A stretch of DNA of 63,944 nt, the filler included. It is 10 parts of 10 records of this genome, joined end to end, with 100 filler letters (N's around TTAATTAATTAA, not from the genome) between each part and the next. Parts side by side here need not be neighbours in the genome. Positions count along the whole stretch, not along the records: positions 1 to 8,484 come from SRR15195285_1264; 9 more parts are not named here. One strand, given 5' to 3'. This document shows, piece after piece, positions 1-23,229 of the stretch (the stretch's first letter is position 1; each line of letters starts with the position of its first letter). The notes beneath the pieces were generated by a model. The model was not told the DNA's origin and ran no database searches. It worked only from the letters and a program-made list of their open reading frames with translations. Position numbers and translations under genes: made by a program.

Positions 1-2
1 AC

Positions 3-125
3 GAGGACGAGGACGAGGACGAGGACGATGACGAAGAAGACCAAGAGACGGAGCGCAAAGCCGCGACAATGATGACGGAGGACCAGCAATTGCAGGCGGC
101 TATCAAGGCTTCCATGTCAAAATGA
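3..125 (+). CDS. 3' end of a truncated gene: acidic tract plus C-terminal ubiquitin-interacting motif (UIM)
   Basis: Frame from nt 3 reads EDEDEDEDDDEEDQETERKAATMMTEDQQLQAAIKASMSK* (TGA 123-125). EDQQLQAAIKAS matches the UIM pattern acidic-L-x-x-A-x-x-x-S. Confidence 0.6.
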   Translation, partial: EDEDEDEDDDEEDQETERKAATMMTEDQQLQAAIKASMSK

Positions 126-295
126 TGTATCGTACAGCTTTTTTCTAAACGAGAACTAACGCACGGCATGAAGGCCTTTTGCCCTGCAACACCCTTTATT
201 GCTTTGTGCACCCGACATCATGGGTGCATCATAGTTAGGTGATGAATTCCGTTCGGTGTGGTTGTGAGTTCAGCTACTACGCACTTTTGCCTCAG

Positions 296-1837
296 CTAGC
301 TTAGCAAGCACGGCCAAGTCTCGGGCCCCGCCCCGGCTGCTGCCTTAAGTGCACCGCAGTCCTCTGCTTTCCAACCATGCTCCATCTTGATCTCCAGATC
401 GAGAATGAGCGTGTTCCTAGCCTTCGGGTCGTACTGCGTCCATGTGATTCCTCCGCGACCGCGGCTTGGGGCTGTCACGGCTGGCATGGGTTTGCCCCCA
501 CGTGCAAAGGATCCCCAGTAGTTTTGCATGGCTGCCGTCAGCGCGTGCTCCCTAGCGTTCGTAACACAGCTCGTCGGGGTGCCAAATGACCAGTACAGCT
601 CGGCAGCATGGGACGCCCAGCCCTGGGTGATCGGCGCAGTAGAGATGTTGCGCAGCACCGCCTCATCCTGGCAAACCGGGCCGTACCTGAAGAAGTACAT
701 GAAGCTAGGGCTGCCCACCGCACTGATTAGGCTTGCGAGATCGTAGTTTGGACACACGACCGTACAGTCGCCGGTAGCTTGCACCAATGCGCCATTGCGA
801 GAGCCACCGAAACGTGTGGCTGCGGGATACAGATGTTGAACTGCCGAGCTGTTGTCTGGAAAAGACGTCGCCATGTCCGCGGCAAAGGCGACTGGTCCGA
901 GAGCAGGACCGCCGTCGATGACAAAGGTTTCAATCCCATCGAACGAATTACCGCCTAGCATAACCTGCTCTGCGTTGAGGTTCCCGCCTTGCTCGATCAA
1001 GCGTTGGAAATGCTCAAGCGGCAGCCCCTCGCGATGTGGCAACACCCAGCGATCGACTCCTGGCAGAACCTCCGGTCCTTGCGCGAAGAGGTCGGACGCG
1101 TTGGCTCGACGCAAAGTCTCGAGCGAGCGGCCTGCAGCAAAGGCCTCACTTAGTGCCAGCACCTCGTCTTCGGTGCCCGGCTTCCATGGACCAGTGCACG
1201 GACCAGATTCGAGGATTGCGCGACGAAATAGGCCTTTGGCCCGGGGAGACACCAGCAGCGTGCAAATCGAGAGCGCCCCCGCCGACTGGCCAAACACCGT
1301 GAGCTGCGAAGCGTCGCCGCCGAAGTGAGCGACATGCCGGTGCAGCCATTGCAGAGCAACCACGACATCGTAAATGCCATTCATTGCCCCCGTCGTCGGC
1401 GTGCGAGTGCTGACCGACGTTTCGCGGAGGAGCGCGTCGCTAGAGTAGAAACCGAGCGCCCCTAGGCGGTAGTTCATCGTGACGACCACCACACCCTGCG
1501 AGGCCGCGAGCACGCTTCCGTCGTAGTCGCGCCCTGCGCCGAAGGAATAGCCACCACCATGCACCCACAGCATTACTGGTAGCAGTTTCTCCCCAGCTCG
1601 AGCTGGCGTCCAGATGTTCAGGAACAAACAATCCTCGCCGATTTTGCCCACGCGCCCCGCCTGAATGCAGTCGTGGCCGAAAGAGGTGTACGAAGCGCCG
1701 GGTTCCAACGGCGCCTCCACTGCGGGCATGAAGCGCCGCCCACCGGTGGGTGGCAGCGCGTACCGTACACCCTTGTAAGACTCCACGGCGGTCAACGTGC
1801 TAGGCAGCACGAGCAGCGCCGTTACCATCAAGACCAT
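296..1837 (-). CDS. Type-B carboxylesterase (COesterase family), probably secreted, intronless
   Basis: EDCLFLNIWTP signature, HGGG oxyanion loop, nucleophile FGQSAG, catalytic His in ASHAAEL. Hydrophobic start MVLMVTALLVL at the ATG ending at 1837. Confidence 0.92.
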   Translation of the reverse strand: MVLMVTALLVLPSTLTAVESYKGVRYALPPTGGRRFMPAVEAPLEPGASYTSFGHDCIQAGRVGKIGEDCLFLNIWTPARAGEKLLPVMLWVHGGGYSFGAGRDYDGSVLAASQGVVVVTMNYRLGALGFYSSDALLRETSVSTRTPTTGAMNGIYDVVVALQWLHRHVAHFGGDASQLTVFGQSAGALSICTLLVSPRAKGLFRRAILESGPCTGPWKPGTEDEVLALSEAFAAGRSLETLRRANASDLFAQGPEVLPGVDRWVLPHREGLPLEHFQRLIEQGGNLNAEQVMLGGNSFDGIETFVIDGGPALGPVAFAADMATSFPDNSSAVQHLYPAATRFGGSRNGALVQATGDCTVVCPNYDLASLISAVGSPSFMYFFRYGPVCQDEAVLRNISTAPITQGWASHAAELYWSFGTPTSCVTNAREHALTAAMQNYWGSFARGGKPMPAVTAPSRGRGGITWTQYDPKARNTLILDLEIKMEHGWKAEDCGALKAAAGAGPETWPCLLS

Positions 1838-2156
1838 ATCTCTCGCGCGCGGACCTCTATCTACTAGCGTACCGCGGTACAGTAGGATACTAGCTAGTAT
1901 ATACCGGCCCGGCGCCGCGGTAGAGGCGCGCTCGCCGGCCGCGCCGGCGGAGCCGCCGCCGCCGGGGGTCGTCGCATGCACGCGCGCGTGCGCCGGTGTA
2001 CCGCACACGCGTACGTAGCTAGCTAGCTACGTACCGTGAGAATCCGCCCGGGACCTGGTTTGGTCGCTCGACCCGCCGGCGATATCTTCGGCGATATCTT
2101 CGTTTGTGTGAAGCTGTGCGCACACACCACGCTACAGCAATACTGGGCATTCGGGG

Positions 2157-3839
2157 ATGTGGTGGAGCAAGCAGCAAGAGACAGCCGAGCTCAGCGGAGA
2201 GTTCTCCGGCGAGCTACGGCGCACTGATCGACGCACGGCTGACGCTGCGGCATCGCCCATTGCTATGGCACCCACAGAGTGAGAAATCTTCCGGTGTTGT
2301 GCTTACAGCGATGCGACAGCCGGCCAGACCGTGCGATGCGGTTTCTCCGTCGCCTGGCTTGCGCAGCAGTGTGAGTGTGTGGTGGCTTGCGTGCGCAGTC
2401 GATTCCTGCTGGACATGAATGGCTACCTGCACTTGCGTGGTGTCCTCACTGGTAGCCATCTCGCTACTGCACGGGCCGCTGTGGTAAGCTCTATGTACCC
2501 CATATCGCAGTAGTCTACTGCGTCTGCCCTGCCCTGCAGTAGTTTGATTCGACAAGGTCTGTGTGACCTTGGTGGGTTGTGACTATCATCAGGTGCGGTA
2601 CGCGGAGGCGGACCCTAGCGAGCTCCACCCGCCTTTCGACCAAATCCGACGAGACAATGACGCGACTGTGTACGCTAGCTCCACCAAGTTTTCATTGGCA
2701 TCTGATTAGCTTTGCCATGGAACGATGTACTCAAGGCTTTGAATTCATATTGGAGCAGGTACCCATCGGATGCGGTTAACATCGCGAGCCACCTTCCACA
2801 CGCGTTTGCGTTTGACAAAAGCTTGGAGAGCATCATTTTCCACGAGCGCATCTGGCCCATAGTGATGGAGCTCACGGACGGTAAGCCTCGGCTGGGCGGC
2901 GGTGTGCTGCTCTGCGAAGATCACAGGCCAGGTGGAGCGGGCGAACGCCCCGTCCATTTGCACTGCGCGCGCGAGGACGGTGGACCACGCCGTGGCCTGT
3001 TTTCCGTATCGAACGGCCGGATCCACTGCGATCACTTTCTAGTATTTCCCTGTGCGTGTGCCTCCGCACTGCAAACTACAGGCTTCGCAAGCTAACCACA
3101 ATCGCAATACTGACCGCACGTATCAATGTCACAGACTTCGATGATGTAAATGAAGGCGACGGTGGTCTTGTGGTTCTGCCCGGTAGTCGTACGTTCTCTT
3201 TTCGTGCACCGCTGCGCAATCTTGCACAAGACCTTGCTCGTGCAATCTCAACGTGTCATCTGCCTTTGCTGTGTCGGGTCGGACGATGGGCTGGCATGTG
3301 CAGATAAGAGTTTGTTTGAACGTCCGCCGGAACTGTACGGAGCATTTGGCGAAGCAGCACGACGCGCGACACGAGAAGACCAGTACCCTGAAACAGGTCG
3401 ATTCGGAGAGTATACTGGGGCGAGATGGCGAGAAGTTTTCGACTATAACGGTGTTTTGCCGGAAGAGTCCGTAGACCACGGCATGAAGAACATCTGCCCC
3501 AGAGCGGGTGACGTGTTAATAATGCCCGAGGCCCTGACCCACGGCGTGCTGCCGTGGCTGCCCACCGACCGTGCGAGATACGCGATGTTGATGACCATAA
3601 CCCCAAGCGATCGCGGTAAGCATTCAACGCATGCGCTGGTACTGTGGACGCCGGCACACAATCATCTCACCAGCTTCACCATCGCTGACTAAATGCACGG
3701 GGCAGGGAATGGCGCTGGTCGACCAAACAACTCCTCAGTCCCACCGGAGATCTTTGAGGTGCTCTCGCCAGAGACACAGGAGCTGACCCAATTCGGTGAA
3801 GGCGTGAAGCAGGTCGCACATTCTGCATCAAAGCTTTAG
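2157..3839 (+). CDS. Phytanoyl-CoA dioxygenase (PhyH)-family Fe(II)/2-oxoglutarate oxygenase, multi-exon, with C-terminal SKL peroxisomal signal
   Basis: Spliced model gives RFLLDMNGYLHLRGVL, VHLHCARED, DDVNEGDGGLVVLPGSHK, AGDVLIMPEALTHGVLPW..DRAR. Last intron 3616-3705 is phase-consistent and the last exon ends ASKL*. Start codon is uncertain. Confidence 0.8.
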
Positions 3840-4872
3840 GTAACTCAGGGTTGTAACTCAGGGTTGTTGGAATTGTGGTTATCGCGCATCATTCATAGAG
3901 ACTGCATTATTCGTTCACGCAGCAGTCTGGTCAACGAATGGGAGACTGATCAACGAATGGGATGCAGTGCAGATCTACTAGAATGGGATGAGCCAGCTGA
4001 TCCACCTAGGCTGTTCGACCGGCTCGTTGCTTGTACAATCATGTATGCGCTTCTCGAGGTATAATTATAGCTTCTGCAACCTCTGCCGCTATAGGTGCCC
4101 GTCACGTGCGAAGTGTGCCGTTGCACACAGTGCTAACTATGTTGCTCTTTTTGTACCCACCCACTCCTGCTCTTCTTCTGCCAGCATCTTGCGCATATTC
4201 GCGAGCCATCGCTGCGCCTCACGCGCTTCGCATCCAACATGCGAATACTAGTAACTCACGCTGGCGACCGACGATTCCCAGGCGGCGGCCGGCCGGCGTG
4301 CGCGGGCCTATTGATCAGAATCAGAACCAGAATCAGATACATTATCATGTAAAGCATTTCAAAAACAAATGGAATTGTCATTGTCATTGATACATTACAA
4401 AAAAATACACCAGATCTAGTATCGCTGTTCGGGTGCCTGCGCATGGGTGTGTGCGTGTGCGCAACGGCGCACACGTGAAGAGAGATTAAGGCAAATCCTA
4501 CTTCCCTTAAACGGACCCACACGCGGTGAGTTCAACACACAGAATCCTAGGGGATTAATGTAGTGTAAAATACAATCTACCTATGAGCTATGATCTAACT
4601 ACACGTGTAAGAGAATCCAAGCCGATTCTCTACATCATCAGATGCTGAAATCGACATCCAATGCTAGTTCTCACACCCTCGAGTGGCGCAGACCGAACTC
4701 CCCGAATTCCTCGAGCCCTGGCCCCGCCGAGTAGCTCTTGGGGATGGTGGGAGAGAGCTAGTTTGCTACAATGTGGTGAGTCCAAGGTGTCGGAGGCAAA
4801 AAGTACTACAGTGGATCTCGCCGCAACTACTAGTATATGACGCATAAACAGCCGCTCACACAGTACTCGATT

Positions 4873-7800
4873 TTATACCTGTCGAAAAGTCAGATTCACT
4901 CGCACATTCCCCCGTGGGGCAGCAGGAGGAGGTCCCTCCGCATCCCAATGATCATCATTGCCACTGTCTGTTGTCACTTTCACGTTGGGAGGAATGCTAC
5001 CAGGGAGCACTTCGTGCTCCCACATCCGCGGGAAAATCACTAGATCACCGTGGTGGAGCGGTTCGTCAAATGCCAGACCGCCCTCTGGGTGGATCACACG
5101 AAAACGTCGTGCCGCACCAAATGACAGCGACGCCACCTCGTCGCATGTGAAAATCGCCTCGTCATCTCTGCAGCAACACCAGCAGCAAGTCAGAAAGCAT
5201 ATGTGTTGCTATTTTTCGGTATGAGTCGCCTCGTCTCTTCAGTACGAATTCGTCGTCCGACTGAGAAAACCAACAGACGGCTTATCCAGTGGAAAAGACG
5301 TACCGATGGCGTGCCAGCGCAGAGTTGTCGTCGTCGTAAACGTTGACGTTCACAGCGTTGAAGGCAGTGCCCGCCACACGCGAGGCAGAGGCCATCGCTT
5401 CCACCAAGAGCGGTGGGAGTGGGAGGGGTTCAAACGAATGTCCCGCGTAACGGTACCTGATGTGCTCGCACATCATGCCGTCATCAGTTGCGAGTAGTGG
5501 CGGTCAGCAAGTCACTATTAGTCATTCTGTGGTGAAAGCTGTAGGGCAATGGAAACCTAGCCTGCTGTGTGGACGAGCGCGACAACTGCGTGGCGTACGG
5601 AGTATCAATATCATCGCCCAGCCACGCGACTTTACGGTGAGAATGGCCTGCGTTGCCCCCCTGCCCCATTGTGTAGGCACGTGGAGCATCGCCCAAGGCC
5701 TCTAACATAGCCATGATAGATATTTCAGCACTGAAGGCAGGGATATGCTTCACTTCCGGCACATCTGGACGGACAACGAGACATACACAGCCAGAGTAAT
5801 TCAGAAGGGTCCAAAAATGAAGCCCGGCACGCTCGAGTGGCAAACAGTTATGACTGGCCGCTGTTCATCCGCTCCGACTCACCAATCCGCGTTGAAATCG
5901 ATGACAGAGCAGTAGTCATTCGGGGTGCAACCAGCTCACGGAGCTCGCTTAGAAAGTTGTCAAACTCAGATTGGAGCGCAGGAGACGCAACTGCCGAGTC
6001 AATGGCAGAACGTATTGCCACTTCCGGCTCATTCAATGTTGATACTCCAGACCGTTTCGCACTGCAAAACAAAACCACATCGAAGCGCACTCTCAAGGGA
6101 GGCGGTCAAAGCGATGCTAGGTCCGGACGACAATCGATTGTATGCGTTCTATTCCAGTATGAGGGAAAGACCACAGCAGTGGACGGTCTTACCCGAAGCC
6201 ATCGACAGTTGCGGCGAAGGCCTTGTCCTTAAAGCAGCACTCTGCAAGCACGAGGTTGCCGGGCGGTGCGAGTGGAATCTCAACACCACCACTCTTCGAA
6301 AAGGCTAGTGCGATGTAGTCTCGAGAAACCAGGCCACCTGTGGACAATGACAAGTGCGTAGTCCAGTCGGAATGCATTTTCATCACTGTGGCAACGATTG
6401 GCTAAGTTAGTTTGAGATACCTGCGACTGCCAGGACTAGACCCATCATCTTCAGGATCTGATGGTACAAAAACGATCGGCCTGTAATGGTCAGCACCGCA
6501 AAATCTCCCAAACCACTGGCCTTCGCGTGGAAACCCGCGGTCATTCCCGAACGGCATCGATAGACAGAGCGCACAGACTTGCCTGTTGTGCACACCACAC
6601 CACATTCTGAAAGAATCAACGATGGGAAGTGAGAATGCCAAAACGGATCGCCAATTAAAGTAAGACGAGCTGCAAACTTGACTTACCGTCGCTGCTATCG
6701 TGGAAGTGTGGACAAAAGTTGTGAAAACTACGTGTTCCGGTCAGCAACCGCAGGGCGTCACGCAGCCGCTGGTGGGCAGCACGGCGCACTACGGCGTCAC
6801 TCTCTAGCAGTGCCATCAAGCCTTTGGGTTCGGCACCTGGAAATCCAACCTGGTCCGCATCATTTGTGTAGCCTTAGTGCAACCAGCCGTAGCGGAGACA
6901 AGCACCGTTAACAAGGCGTATGCAGCACAAGAGCAAAGGTGCAGAGAAGAAGGACACACCGCCCCATCGATCGCTGCAGCCATACGTTCGGCGTCCGCAA
7001 GGCTATTCATATGCAGTATCGCGGATCCAGGGTGTTCCGACAAGACTACCTTATCCAGAGGCGCTTCGCCGCCATCTTGTGCAGCGTCGGCCCAGCATGC
7101 TGCAGCGAAGTCTCGCAACACACTGGCATCACAGATGTCCGGCAGCCCGCAGACCCACACACAAGTCTCCTTGGTGCTGGCACCCGCACGTTGCTCTTCG
7201 GGCGTAACCAGTGCCCGGTAGGGCACGTAGTAGCGGTACTCCCGCTTCTGGCATGCCCGTCGCATGTCTATATCAGGCTGCTTCGCCACATCAAAACGCT
7301 GCAGGACCGTTATAGTCGGAGGAAGCTCCGCACGGACTGCTTGCAGCCATGACTGACCTTCCAGAGGCGCGGGTGCAGCTGAACCCTTCTCAAAGTCTGT
7401 CGCAATCTTGACGTGGAGCACGTTTGCTAGCGCGTGTACGCCGCGATCGGTCCGGCTGCTTCGGGAGTGCACCTCAGCAGTGGCCGCTTTAGCAGCCTTG
7501 TGCCGCATGCTTGCAGCTTGGATCGCTGCGAGGAGCGTGCCCTCCAGGGTCGGGCAGCGCTCCTCATCCTCCTGCGCGTTGCGCTGCGAGCCGAAATATT
7601 CCGTCCCGACGTAACCATAGAGTACGACGTAGCGCTCAACTCGCTGCACCTGCTCACCCCCGCAGCCAGTGGCACGAATGTGACGAAACATCGCATTGCG
7701 AGAAGCAAACGGCGCCCCACACCCACCGCACTTCACGGCACCGCCGCAAGGGGTCGCTTTGCCTAGCGGCTTGCCCTTCCGATTGAGCGGGCCGGTTTCT

Positions 7801-8068
7801 CCGGCCGCTCGAGCCGCAGCGGCAGCCTGTGCTCTCTTCCTCTCCTGCTTAGAAGCCTTCTTCGACGGCTTCTTCTGCGTCGGGTGCTGCTGCGCCTCGG
7901 GCTCCGGCTCCGGCTCCGGCTGACCTGCACCAGCTGTCGTACTCAGCGCCGCATCCGGGTTATGCACCCCGCGCTCAGCGGCCTCTCCATCGCCCGAGGC
8001 CACCTCCGCATCCGCCTGCAGCAGCACCGGAACCACAAATACACCCGACTCACATGCGCAACGGCCAT
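4873..8068 (-). CDS. TruA/PUS1-family pseudouridine synthase with zinc finger and RRM insert, spliced to a C-terminal ALKBH2/3-like dioxygenase
   Basis: PUS motifs: YGYVGTEYFGSQ, SRTDRGVHA, REYRYYVP, GTRSFHNF, ITGRSFLYHQILKMMG, IPLAPPGNLVL. AlkB motifs: RKVAWLGD..PYRYAG, FNAVNVNVYDD, ARHRDDE, VASLSFGAARRF, WEHEV, RVNLTFRQ. Phase-consistent introns at 6850-6959, ~6607-6686, 6338-6420, 6062-6192, 5765-5882, 5457-5598, 5168-5303. The 5' end may extend to an ATG near 8227. Confidence 0.75.
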
Positions 8069-8484
8069 GCGCGCAATAACGTAGTGCTACTGACGAAATG
8101 ATAGACGGACCCGCAGTGTTTTGTCTTCGGAGTTGTTCGCCGTGCAGGCGAATCGGCAGCTATTGGTCAGCGCGAGGGCGAGCACGGCGCTGCCCAGCGC
8201 CGCCACTGTGGTCGCACTACGCTCCATACAAGTATAGATCTCTCTACTAGTAGGTCCAAGAGAGATCTAGATCTAGATCTCTAAGATACCAGTACAGCTG
8301 CACAGCGCAGCAGCAGGTGCAGGACGCGCTCGCTGTGCTCTACGTAGCCTACGAGCCGTGCTGGTAGCGAACTCTATCTCTCTACGGGGCGCCGTCGCGG
8401 GCGGCGACGGAGGTACGCGCGCGCGCGAGCCGGCCGCACAGCATGCATTATTGCTTGAGGTGGGAATCTCGGAGGATTTGAGGA

Positions 8485-8584
8485 NNNNNNNNNNNNNNNN
8501 NNNNNNNNNNNNNNNNNNNNNNNNNNNNTTAATTAATTAANNNNNNNNNNNNNNNNNNNNNNNNNNNNNNNNNNNNNNNNNNNN
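8485..8584. other. Artificial contig spacer (44 N + TTAATTAATTAA + 44 N)
   Basis: Identical 100-nt six-frame-stop linker recurring nine times in the window. Confidence 0.99.
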
Positions 8585-17722: not shown

Positions 17723-17822
17723 NNNNNNNNNNNNNNNNNNNNNNNNNNNNNNNNNNNNNNNNNNNNTTAATTAATTAANNNNNNNNNNNNNNNNNNNNNN
17801 NNNNNNNNNNNNNNNNNNNNNN
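17723..17822. other. Artificial contig spacer
   Basis: 44 N + TTAATTAATTAA + 44 N. Confidence 0.99.
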
Positions 17823-23129: not shown

Positions 23130-23229
23130 NNNNNNNNNNNNNNNNNNNNNNNNNNNNNNNNNNNNNNNNNNNNTTAATTAATTAANNNNNNNNNNNNNNN
23201 NNNNNNNNNNNNNNNNNNNNNNNNNNNNN
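23130..23229. other. Artificial contig spacer
   Basis: 44 N + TTAATTAATTAA + 44 N. Confidence 0.99.

Follow-up and report, generated by a model that had tools for sequence, protein, structure and literature searches.

Substrates of the AlkB-type dioxygenase ALKBH3 are single-stranded DNA and RNA, m1A and m3C of tRNA among them, and AlkB domains also occur joined to other enzymes. ALKBH8 of animals is an RRM–AlkB–methyltransferase tRNA enzyme, in which AlkB is fused to a second tRNA-modifying domain, and in plant RNA viruses (Flexiviridae and relatives) the replicase polyproteins embed an AlkB domain that presumably keeps specific RNA free of methyl damage. To our knowledge, pseudouridylation and AlkB demethylation are not known steps of one pathway. 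Here we describe a marine protist locus that appears to bring these two activities together. The window is a 63,944-nucleotide (nt) stretch of joined contigs, in which we analysed the part contributed by one contig (SRR15195285_1264, positions 1–8484). The contigs are short, stem from a metagenome or single-cell bin, and are set apart every 5–9 kb by two runs of 44 N's with 12 bases between them (at 8485–8584, 17723–17822, 23130–23229 and six other sites), so that the window does not represent one continuous piece of chromosome. On the minus strand, to which all gene coordinates below refer, a pseudouridine synthase (PUS) coding region is followed closely by an AlkB coding region. We conclude that the two are very probably one gene, spliced between positions 5883 and 5764, that makes a single PUS–AlkB protein of about 770 amino acids or more.

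The short sequence between the two domains has the features of an intron. As the first-pass annotation had proposed, and as we found on re-reading the sequence and recomputing the coordinates, a GTGAGT donor (5882–5877) directly follows exon base 5883 in phase 1, and the in-frame PUS stop, TAA at 5850–5848, lies inside the intron just 11 codons past this donor. The unspliced PUS tail reads I-GESERMNSGQS before the stop, an intron-encoded ending. The acceptor (...GTCCGTCCAG) is pyrimidine-rich and ends in CAG, with its last base at 5765 and the next exon starting at 5764. Joining 5883 to 5764 creates a GAT codon and yields the product ...SISTRI-D-VPEVKHIPAF..., restoring the AlkB frame as predicted; this frame continues as VPEVKHIPAFSAEISIMAML... 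When read from stop to stop, the AlkB frame has a stop at 5867–5865 and then no ATG before 5714. Between the last conserved PUS residues and the first conserved AlkB residues there are 20 GT/AG pairs, three of which keep the frame, and only at 5882/5765 does a consensus donor go with a CAG acceptor that is rich in pyrimidines. The length of the intron, 118 nt, is indeed ordinary, as six introns of the same gene that are fixed by homology span 83–142 nt. The PUS stop and the AlkB ATG are just 133 nt apart, compared with approximately 1.2 kb to the next gene on the contig. An open reading frame (ORF) across 5484–5864 (P0027, the window's own read-through) has been recorded from two contigs, and an RNA-library contig that is independent of the window spans 5397–5976 (580 nt) with one mismatch. 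Because this independent contig covers the region, the genomic join of PUS and AlkB sequences is real, and the in-frame PUS-to-AlkB junction is confirmed as an observation.

The strongest support for the fusion comes from two protein variants of a relative that carry the same junction. In a word-indexed search with the first AlkB exon alone as the query, five candidates were examined and two proteins were returned, P0027 and P0028. P0028 (399 amino acids; precomputed family PF01416) is 69% identical to the window over this exon. Its C-terminal PUS half runs in frame into the AlkB N terminus (...GPRMVRALESIANRREVPEVKLLPGFSAELS...RKVAWL) and, when placed on the window by tblastn, it forms six colinear blocks bordered by the introns of the window. 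A cluster look-up showed that P0028 has its 90% cluster in common with P0029, a protein of 699 amino acids from a 2797-nt contig, which contains, in order, an acidic N terminus, a C2H2 finger, the whole PUS domain with its insert, the junction and a complete AlkB domain ending RVNLTMRKVECDSE. P0029 aligns end to end with the spliced product of the window (identity, 66%, or 458 of 689 aligned residues) and is colinear with it across all seven introns, and the alignment is gap-free at the junction (SISTRIDVPEVKHIPAF against SIANRREVPEVKLLPGF). Both proteins go from ...ESIANR directly to REVPEVK, and the intron-encoded tail has no counterpart in either. As a single ORF, P0029 scores 47 bits against PF01416 (cutoff, 23.3) and 57.7 bits against PF13532 (cutoff, 31.2). 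P0028 and P0029 are 93% identical over 365 aligned residues, with scattered substitutions; they are two variants, both of which bridge PUS and AlkB. The fusion proposed in the first-pass annotation is therefore supported by proteins that join the PUS C terminus to the AlkB N terminus at the predicted position.

P0028 departs from P0029 before ADPGAELARK and again after AWLAK, beyond which it reaches a stop after 43 unrelated residues. Such a pattern would be expected of a transcript of the relative that had not been fully spliced, in which case the gene of the relative would also carry introns.

Exon borders in the window were set by tblastn of the spliced relatives on the contig and were then checked by script (Table 1). 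The eight exons (8015–4873) add up to 2319 nt, or 772 codons, without an internal stop, the 5′ limit being provisional. All seven acceptors are CAG, and the donor of the fusion intron is the best of the set. The position of intron 7 is read through in the genomic ORF of a relative (P0001) and is spliced out in P0019 and P0020.

The AlkB half seems to depend on this splice for its completeness. PF13532 matches residues 516–692 of P0029 over profile positions 3–194 of 194, starting at K516 of EVKLLPGF, and the AlkB fold begins at VKLLPGF/VKHIPAF, upstream of the first AlkB ATG of the window at 5714. The comparison with ALKBH3 made in the first-pass annotation was apt, as among solved structures ALKBH3 matches the AlkB part best: ALKBH3 (2iuw) aligns with that part of P0029 from PEVKLLPGF (SRVCLYPGF in ALKBH3) to the C terminus with E = 7.5e-12, and outscores ALKBH2 (48.7 versus about 41 bits). 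The Met encoded at 5714 stands in the middle of helix 1 and aligns to E528 of P0029, and the first Met of the P0029 AlkB domain is M543. Between the junction and this Met, 11 of the 17 window residues are identical to P0029, matching the gene-wide 66%. A start at 5714 loses strand 1 and half of helix 1, and therefore AlkB would be complete only as a fusion; the 17 N-terminal residues exist only in the spliced form, and the fold predicted from the sequence cannot be made whole except as a fusion.

The residues expected for catalysis are in place in both halves, in line with earlier statements that the two active sites look intact. The AlkB motifs of the window are HRDDE (5308–5158, split by an intron), WEHEV (5022–5008) and RVNLTFRQV (4902–4876). 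The HxD...H iron triad is present as HRD plus WEHEV, and the equivalents of these in P0029 align with HSD and WQHRV of ALKBH3; the RxxxxxR 2-oxoglutarate motif is present as RVNLTFR (4902–4882), which aligns with RVNLTFR of ALKBH3. Scored singly against PF13532, AlkB exons of the window reach 27.9 and 15.5 bits (cutoff, 31.2), and AlkB exon 1 alone, a piece too short for this purpose, has no Pfam or PDB match. When the last AlkB exon was searched against 1.84 billion representatives (E <= 0.001), 11 matches were obtained, seven of which are AlkB-like fragments too short to reveal an architecture; the other four (P0022, P0024, P0025 and P0026) are long proteins matched over short stretches. P0017 is 77% identical to this exon and shares its cluster with a EukProt record, from a co-assembled single-cell genome, that bears the label Picomonas judraskeda. 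Judging from these matches, the AlkB of the window appears to belong to a small divergent clade. The sole match of the AlkB-exon alignment in a metagenome locus (L001, 10001–10159; 38% over 52 residues) was rejected as a chance match in a bacterial formate dehydrogenase/NADH dehydrogenase operon.

In the PUS half, the catalytic RTDRGVHA motif is encoded at 7454–7431 and occurs in all 15 PUS rows of our alignment (A2). By sequence, the closest solved structures are those of PUS1 (E about 1e-14). The fold was tested on a model of the orthologue P0029 rather than on the window's own protein; in this model the PUS part has a predicted local distance difference test score (pLDDT) of 80–95, and the best Foldseek matches are yeast Pus1 (7r9f; E = 2e-17) and human PUS1 (~1e-16). 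Introns split the domain in the window, and its PUS exons scored singly against PF01416 reach 16.8 and 20.5 bits (cutoff, 23.3). A C2H2-type zinc finger (7730–7662) lies ahead of the PUS domain, and an insert of ~70 residues (VWVCGLPD...AIDGA; 7160–6960) lies within the catalytic domain. In the P0029 model the insert (residues 232–293) has a beta–alpha–beta–beta–alpha topology at a pLDDT of about 90, with weak Foldseek matches to the RRM proteins SFPQ/NONO and CUGBP1 (E = 1e-4 to 2e-3); the modelled insert would fit an RRM-like fold. The alignment shows that zinc finger and insert are both conserved in dinoflagellate and other protist PUS orthologues. The stretch that would link the two enzymes corresponds to helices 462–475 and 478–509 of the model (pLDDT 82–95).

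The named relatives of the PUS part are dinoflagellates, at 41–47% identity. Gene models of Symbiodiniaceae named PUS1 (P0009, P0011, P0012 and P0013) combine PUS with a PP2C phosphatase (PF00481). In their alignment the PP2C parts stand both before and after PUS, and these combinations may reflect the merging of gene models instead of true fusion.

Several observations weigh against a spliced fusion. Words of the locus are shared by 13 RNA-library runs, and in the four runs examined, as assembled contigs only and with uncovered stretches carrying no meaning, we found no spliced joint: each of the 17 contig pieces runs colinear with the DNA. The piece at 5397–5976 runs unspliced across the fusion intron and also through intron 6, and other pieces enter introns 1, 2, 4 and 7; pieces that pass from exon into intron cover six of the seven introns in whole or in part. 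Because other introns that must be spliced are also unspliced in these pieces, we regard the pieces as DNA carry-over or pre-mRNA, which do not discriminate between the explanations. The contigs of P0029 and P0028 may be cDNA or intron-free DNA. The AlphaFold model of P0029, made from a shallow 16-row alignment, has a pLDDT below 50 over AlkB residues 511–699, and because this half of the model is unreliable, the assignment of the AlkB fold rests on sequence comparison. The distant PUS orthologues P0003, P0004, P0006, P0007 and P0010 are unfused to AlkB. The first-pass annotation had pointed to the combination of PF01416 and PF13532 as an architecture to look for; it was found in P0029 but in none of the 15 PUS matches (PF13532 in 0 of 15), and PF13532 is not listed in any Atlas cluster among those nearest to P0029. 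The unfused orthologues end 10–20 residues past the APRM motif, where the unspliced stop of the window falls. Because the distant orthologues are unfused and end at this old stop position, the fusion is probably young, limited to the lineage of the window and P0029, with the ancestral stop stranded in an intron.

In a rival explanation the locus holds two neighbouring genes, a PUS gene ending at the TAA at 5848 and an AlkB gene that is expressed from its own promoter, or matured with the CAG at 5765 used as a spliced-leader acceptor in the manner of dinoflagellate-like tandem arrays, and translated from the ATG at 5714. The equivalent end of the unfused orthologues and the unspliced RNA-library contig over 5397–5976 are compatible with such an arrangement, as is the dinoflagellate identity of the named PUS orthologues, given that dinoflagellates use spliced-leader trans-splicing. 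We nevertheless consider two genes improbable: translation from 5714 would delete strand 1 and half of helix 1, yet the 17 codons upstream of this ATG are conserved in frame (11 of 17 against P0029). P0029 has no Met at the equivalent position and reads straight from PUS, P0028 has the same junction, and the seven introns have canonical GT...CAG ends. Even less credible, in our estimate, is an artefact or decaying locus, either a mis-joined contig of the bin or a non-functional AlkB remnant. The window is a chain of short contigs with N spacers and the 5′ start of the gene is not fixed, but the independent 580-nt contig crosses the junction with one mismatch, the eight exons are open with all catalytic motifs intact, and the same arrangement is found in a relative at 66% identity. 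The retention of the arrangement at this identity implies purifying selection on both halves.

The preferred reading, one gene spliced across the old PUS stop, could be extended by a regulated pair of isoforms, in which frequent retention of the 118-nt intron gives a PUS-only protein and the efficiency of splicing sets the dosage of AlkB; all of our observations would be consistent with this. A retained intron would stop translation after 11 codons and leave a C terminus of the length seen in unfused orthologues; P0028 differs from P0029 at both ends in the manner of an incompletely spliced transcript, and an unspliced contig is present in an RNA library. A PUS-only isoform is plausible in view of the equivalent ending of those orthologues, but contigs from RNA libraries do not separate pre-mRNA or DNA from mature intron-retaining mRNA, and we regard regulation by retention as possible rather than likely.

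Under the single-gene model, splicing of the mRNA would remove the PUS stop codon and a short spacer, and the product would consist of an N-terminal C2H2 zinc finger, a PUS1/TruA-type PUS with an RRM-like insert, a helical linker and a C-terminal ALKBH3-like Fe(II)/2-oxoglutarate dioxygenase. We hypothesize that the PUS module, the zinc finger and the RRM-like insert recognize structured RNA, which, as with PUS1, is most likely tRNA, and that the bound RNA is presented to the tethered AlkB domain for oxidative removal of methyl or alkyl groups from bases (of the m1A/m3C type). A single enzyme would in that case introduce pseudouridine into a substrate and also erase or repair methyl lesions there, and retention of the fusion intron would give PUS alone, as the first-pass annotation had also suggested. 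Such a gene probably originated, and recently, from an AlkB gene downstream of a PUS gene, with a new intron formed over the old stop.

Table 1 Features of the PUS–AlkB gene (positions in the window)
Feature	Position	Strand	Description
Candidate first coding exon	8054..8068	-	ATG GCC GTT GCG CAT; from the first-pass annotation; uncertain
Large exon	6960..8015	-	Acidic/basic low-complexity N terminus, zinc finger, N-terminal half of the PUS1/TruA domain, RRM-like insert; provisional 5′ limit
Intron 1	6850..6959	-	110 nt, GTGTGT...CAG, phase 0; fixed by colinearity with P0029, P0028 and P0003
PUS exon	6687..6849	-	VGFPGAEPKGLMALLES...TGTRSFHNFCPHFHDSSD
Intron 2	6583..6686	-	104 nt, GTAAGT...CAG, phase 1
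PUS exon	6421..6582	-	KSVRSVYRCRSGMTAGF...FLYHQILKMMGLVLAVA; partial PF01416 match
Intron 3	6338..6420	-	83 nt, GTATCT...CAG, phase 1
PUS exon	6193..6337	-	GGLVSRDYIALAF...NLVLAECCFKDKAFAATVDGFG
Intron 4	6062..6192	-	131 nt, GTAAGA...CAG, phase 2
Last PUS exon	5883..6061	-	C-terminal helices (...FDNFLSELRELVAPRMTTALSSISTRI), the linker in the fusion
Fusion intron	5765..5882	-	118 nt, GTGAGT...CAG, phase 1; if retained, PUS alone, ending ...STRIGESERMNSGQS and stop
AlkB exon 1	5599..5764	-	Strand 1 and helix 1 (VPEVKHIPAFSAEISIMAMLEAL) to RKVAWLGDDIDTP; first in-frame ATG 5714–5712, within helix 1
Intron 6	5457..5598	-	142 nt, GTACGC...CAG, phase 2; interrupts the AlkB fold
AlkB exon 2	5304..5456	-	YRYAGHSF...FNAVNVNVYDDDNSALARHR; PF13532 profile 56–112
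Intron 7	5168..5303	-	136 nt, GTACGT...CAG, phase 2; splits the HRD iron-binding motif
AlkB exon 3	4873..5167	-	DDEAIF...HGDLVIFPRMWEHEV...RVNLTFRQV; stop TAA 4875–4873; PF13532 profile 114–194, 27.9 bits

In the upstream direction the main exon stays open as far as a stop at 8162, and its first in-frame ATG comes only at 7691, within the zinc finger. The candidate start proposed earlier, ATG 8068, is out of frame with the main exon; its use with the GTGAGT donor at 8053 would require an intron of 38, 50, 71 or 80 nt, shorter than any of the homology-fixed introns (83–142 nt). The 38-nt first intron of the first-pass annotation is doubtful on grounds of size. An alternative start at ATG 8227, with a GTCCGT donor at 8110 and an acceptor at 8016, gives an intron of 95 nt. 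Upstream of the PUS main exon (region 8266–8087), a 46-codon ORF begins at ATG 8227 (MERSATTVAALGSAVLALALTNS...). This may represent an upstream ORF; alternatively, it may be a first exon whose hydrophobic start resembles a targeting peptide. A cluster of short palindromic AGATCT repeats (tagagatctagatctagatctctc ... gagagatctatac) lies at ~8296–8240 on the same strand, approximately 200 nt upstream of the candidate start codons. The next recognizable gene on the contig is a single-exon carboxylesterase gene (296–2026, minus strand; PF00135, 274.8 bits), and open frames at 2400–3700 on the plus strand are without a family match.

The locus looks like a gene fusion caught early, in which the old stop survives within a new intron. 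Such genes are broken up when protist metagenome bins are annotated by ORF-based or prokaryote-style gene calling, and most of the database relatives that we found are exon or intron read-through fragments. Should both halves prove active, the protein could serve directly as a tool and as a model for targeted RNA demethylation, and would point to a functional link between pseudouridylation and the removal of methyl lesions on tRNA.

A PUS1 orthologue from a protist (P0004, 932 amino acids) offers a comparison with a second dioxygenase-like domain. It is 45% identical to the PUS of the window and has the same zinc finger and insert. Towards its N terminus (residues about 225–415), P0004 contains a stretch resembling an RRM, together with a domain that bears HxD...H...RYS motifs. 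By ESM features this N-terminal domain scores 0.96 to clusters named 'Fe2OG dioxygenase', which are mostly viral; no Pfam family was found in the region, and the closest leads with a name, 2OG-FeII_Oxy_3 and Tet_JBP, are attached to a minority of the members of the clusters. The dioxygenase-like domain of P0004 is N-terminal and not AlkB-like, whereas that of the window is a C-terminal AlkB. P0004 may thus be a second, independent fusion of PUS with a dioxygenase, at the opposite end. We put forward, as speculation that we think less probable than not, that a single chain serves as 'writer plus eraser' on one RNA (tRNA or another structured RNA) and thereby couples two epitranscriptome layers that are otherwise separate, that the 118-nt intron switches between bifunctional and PUS-only forms, and that P0004, as an independent fusion, reflects a recurrent, selected pairing of pseudouridine synthases with oxidative base-modifying enzymes in marine protists.

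Compared with described systems, the predicted protein combines familiar parts in an unfamiliar order. Like ALKBH3 (2iuw, 9ncz and 8jnr), its AlkB part has the HxD...H and RxxxxxR motifs and an N-terminal strand and helix (V.L.PGF...); ALKBH3 stands alone, however, whereas the AlkB of the window is tethered to PUS and has low identity to ALKBH3. With PUS1 (yeast 7r9f; human 4iqm and 4nz6; TruA family) it has the RTDxGVHA motif in common, to which it adds the N-terminal C2H2 zinc finger, the RRM-like insert and the C-terminal AlkB. Among the relatives examined, a C-terminal AlkB on this PUS is seen only in the window and in P0029/P0028. The likeness to ALKBH8, with AlkB, a second tRNA enzyme and an RRM in one chain, is one of principle only: the partner in ALKBH8 is a Trm9-like methyltransferase and that in the window is a pseudouridine synthase, and the AlkB of the window is C-terminal and ALKBH3-like. 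A Pfam search of P0029 (E <= 0.01) found no methyltransferase family, and the ORF of the window ends three codons after RVNLTFR; because it lacks a C-terminal methyltransferase, the gene is not a member of the ALKBH8 type. The AlkB of Flexiviridae is likewise joined to RNA-handling enzymes, but in a viral context and with other partner domains. A natural PUS–AlkB fusion was not found in the full-text literature searched (reviews, ALKBH8 papers and PMC2938197). The PUS–AlkB protein is a new domain architecture assembled from known families, PUS1/TruA and ALKBH3-like AlkB, with a clear splicing-based origin.

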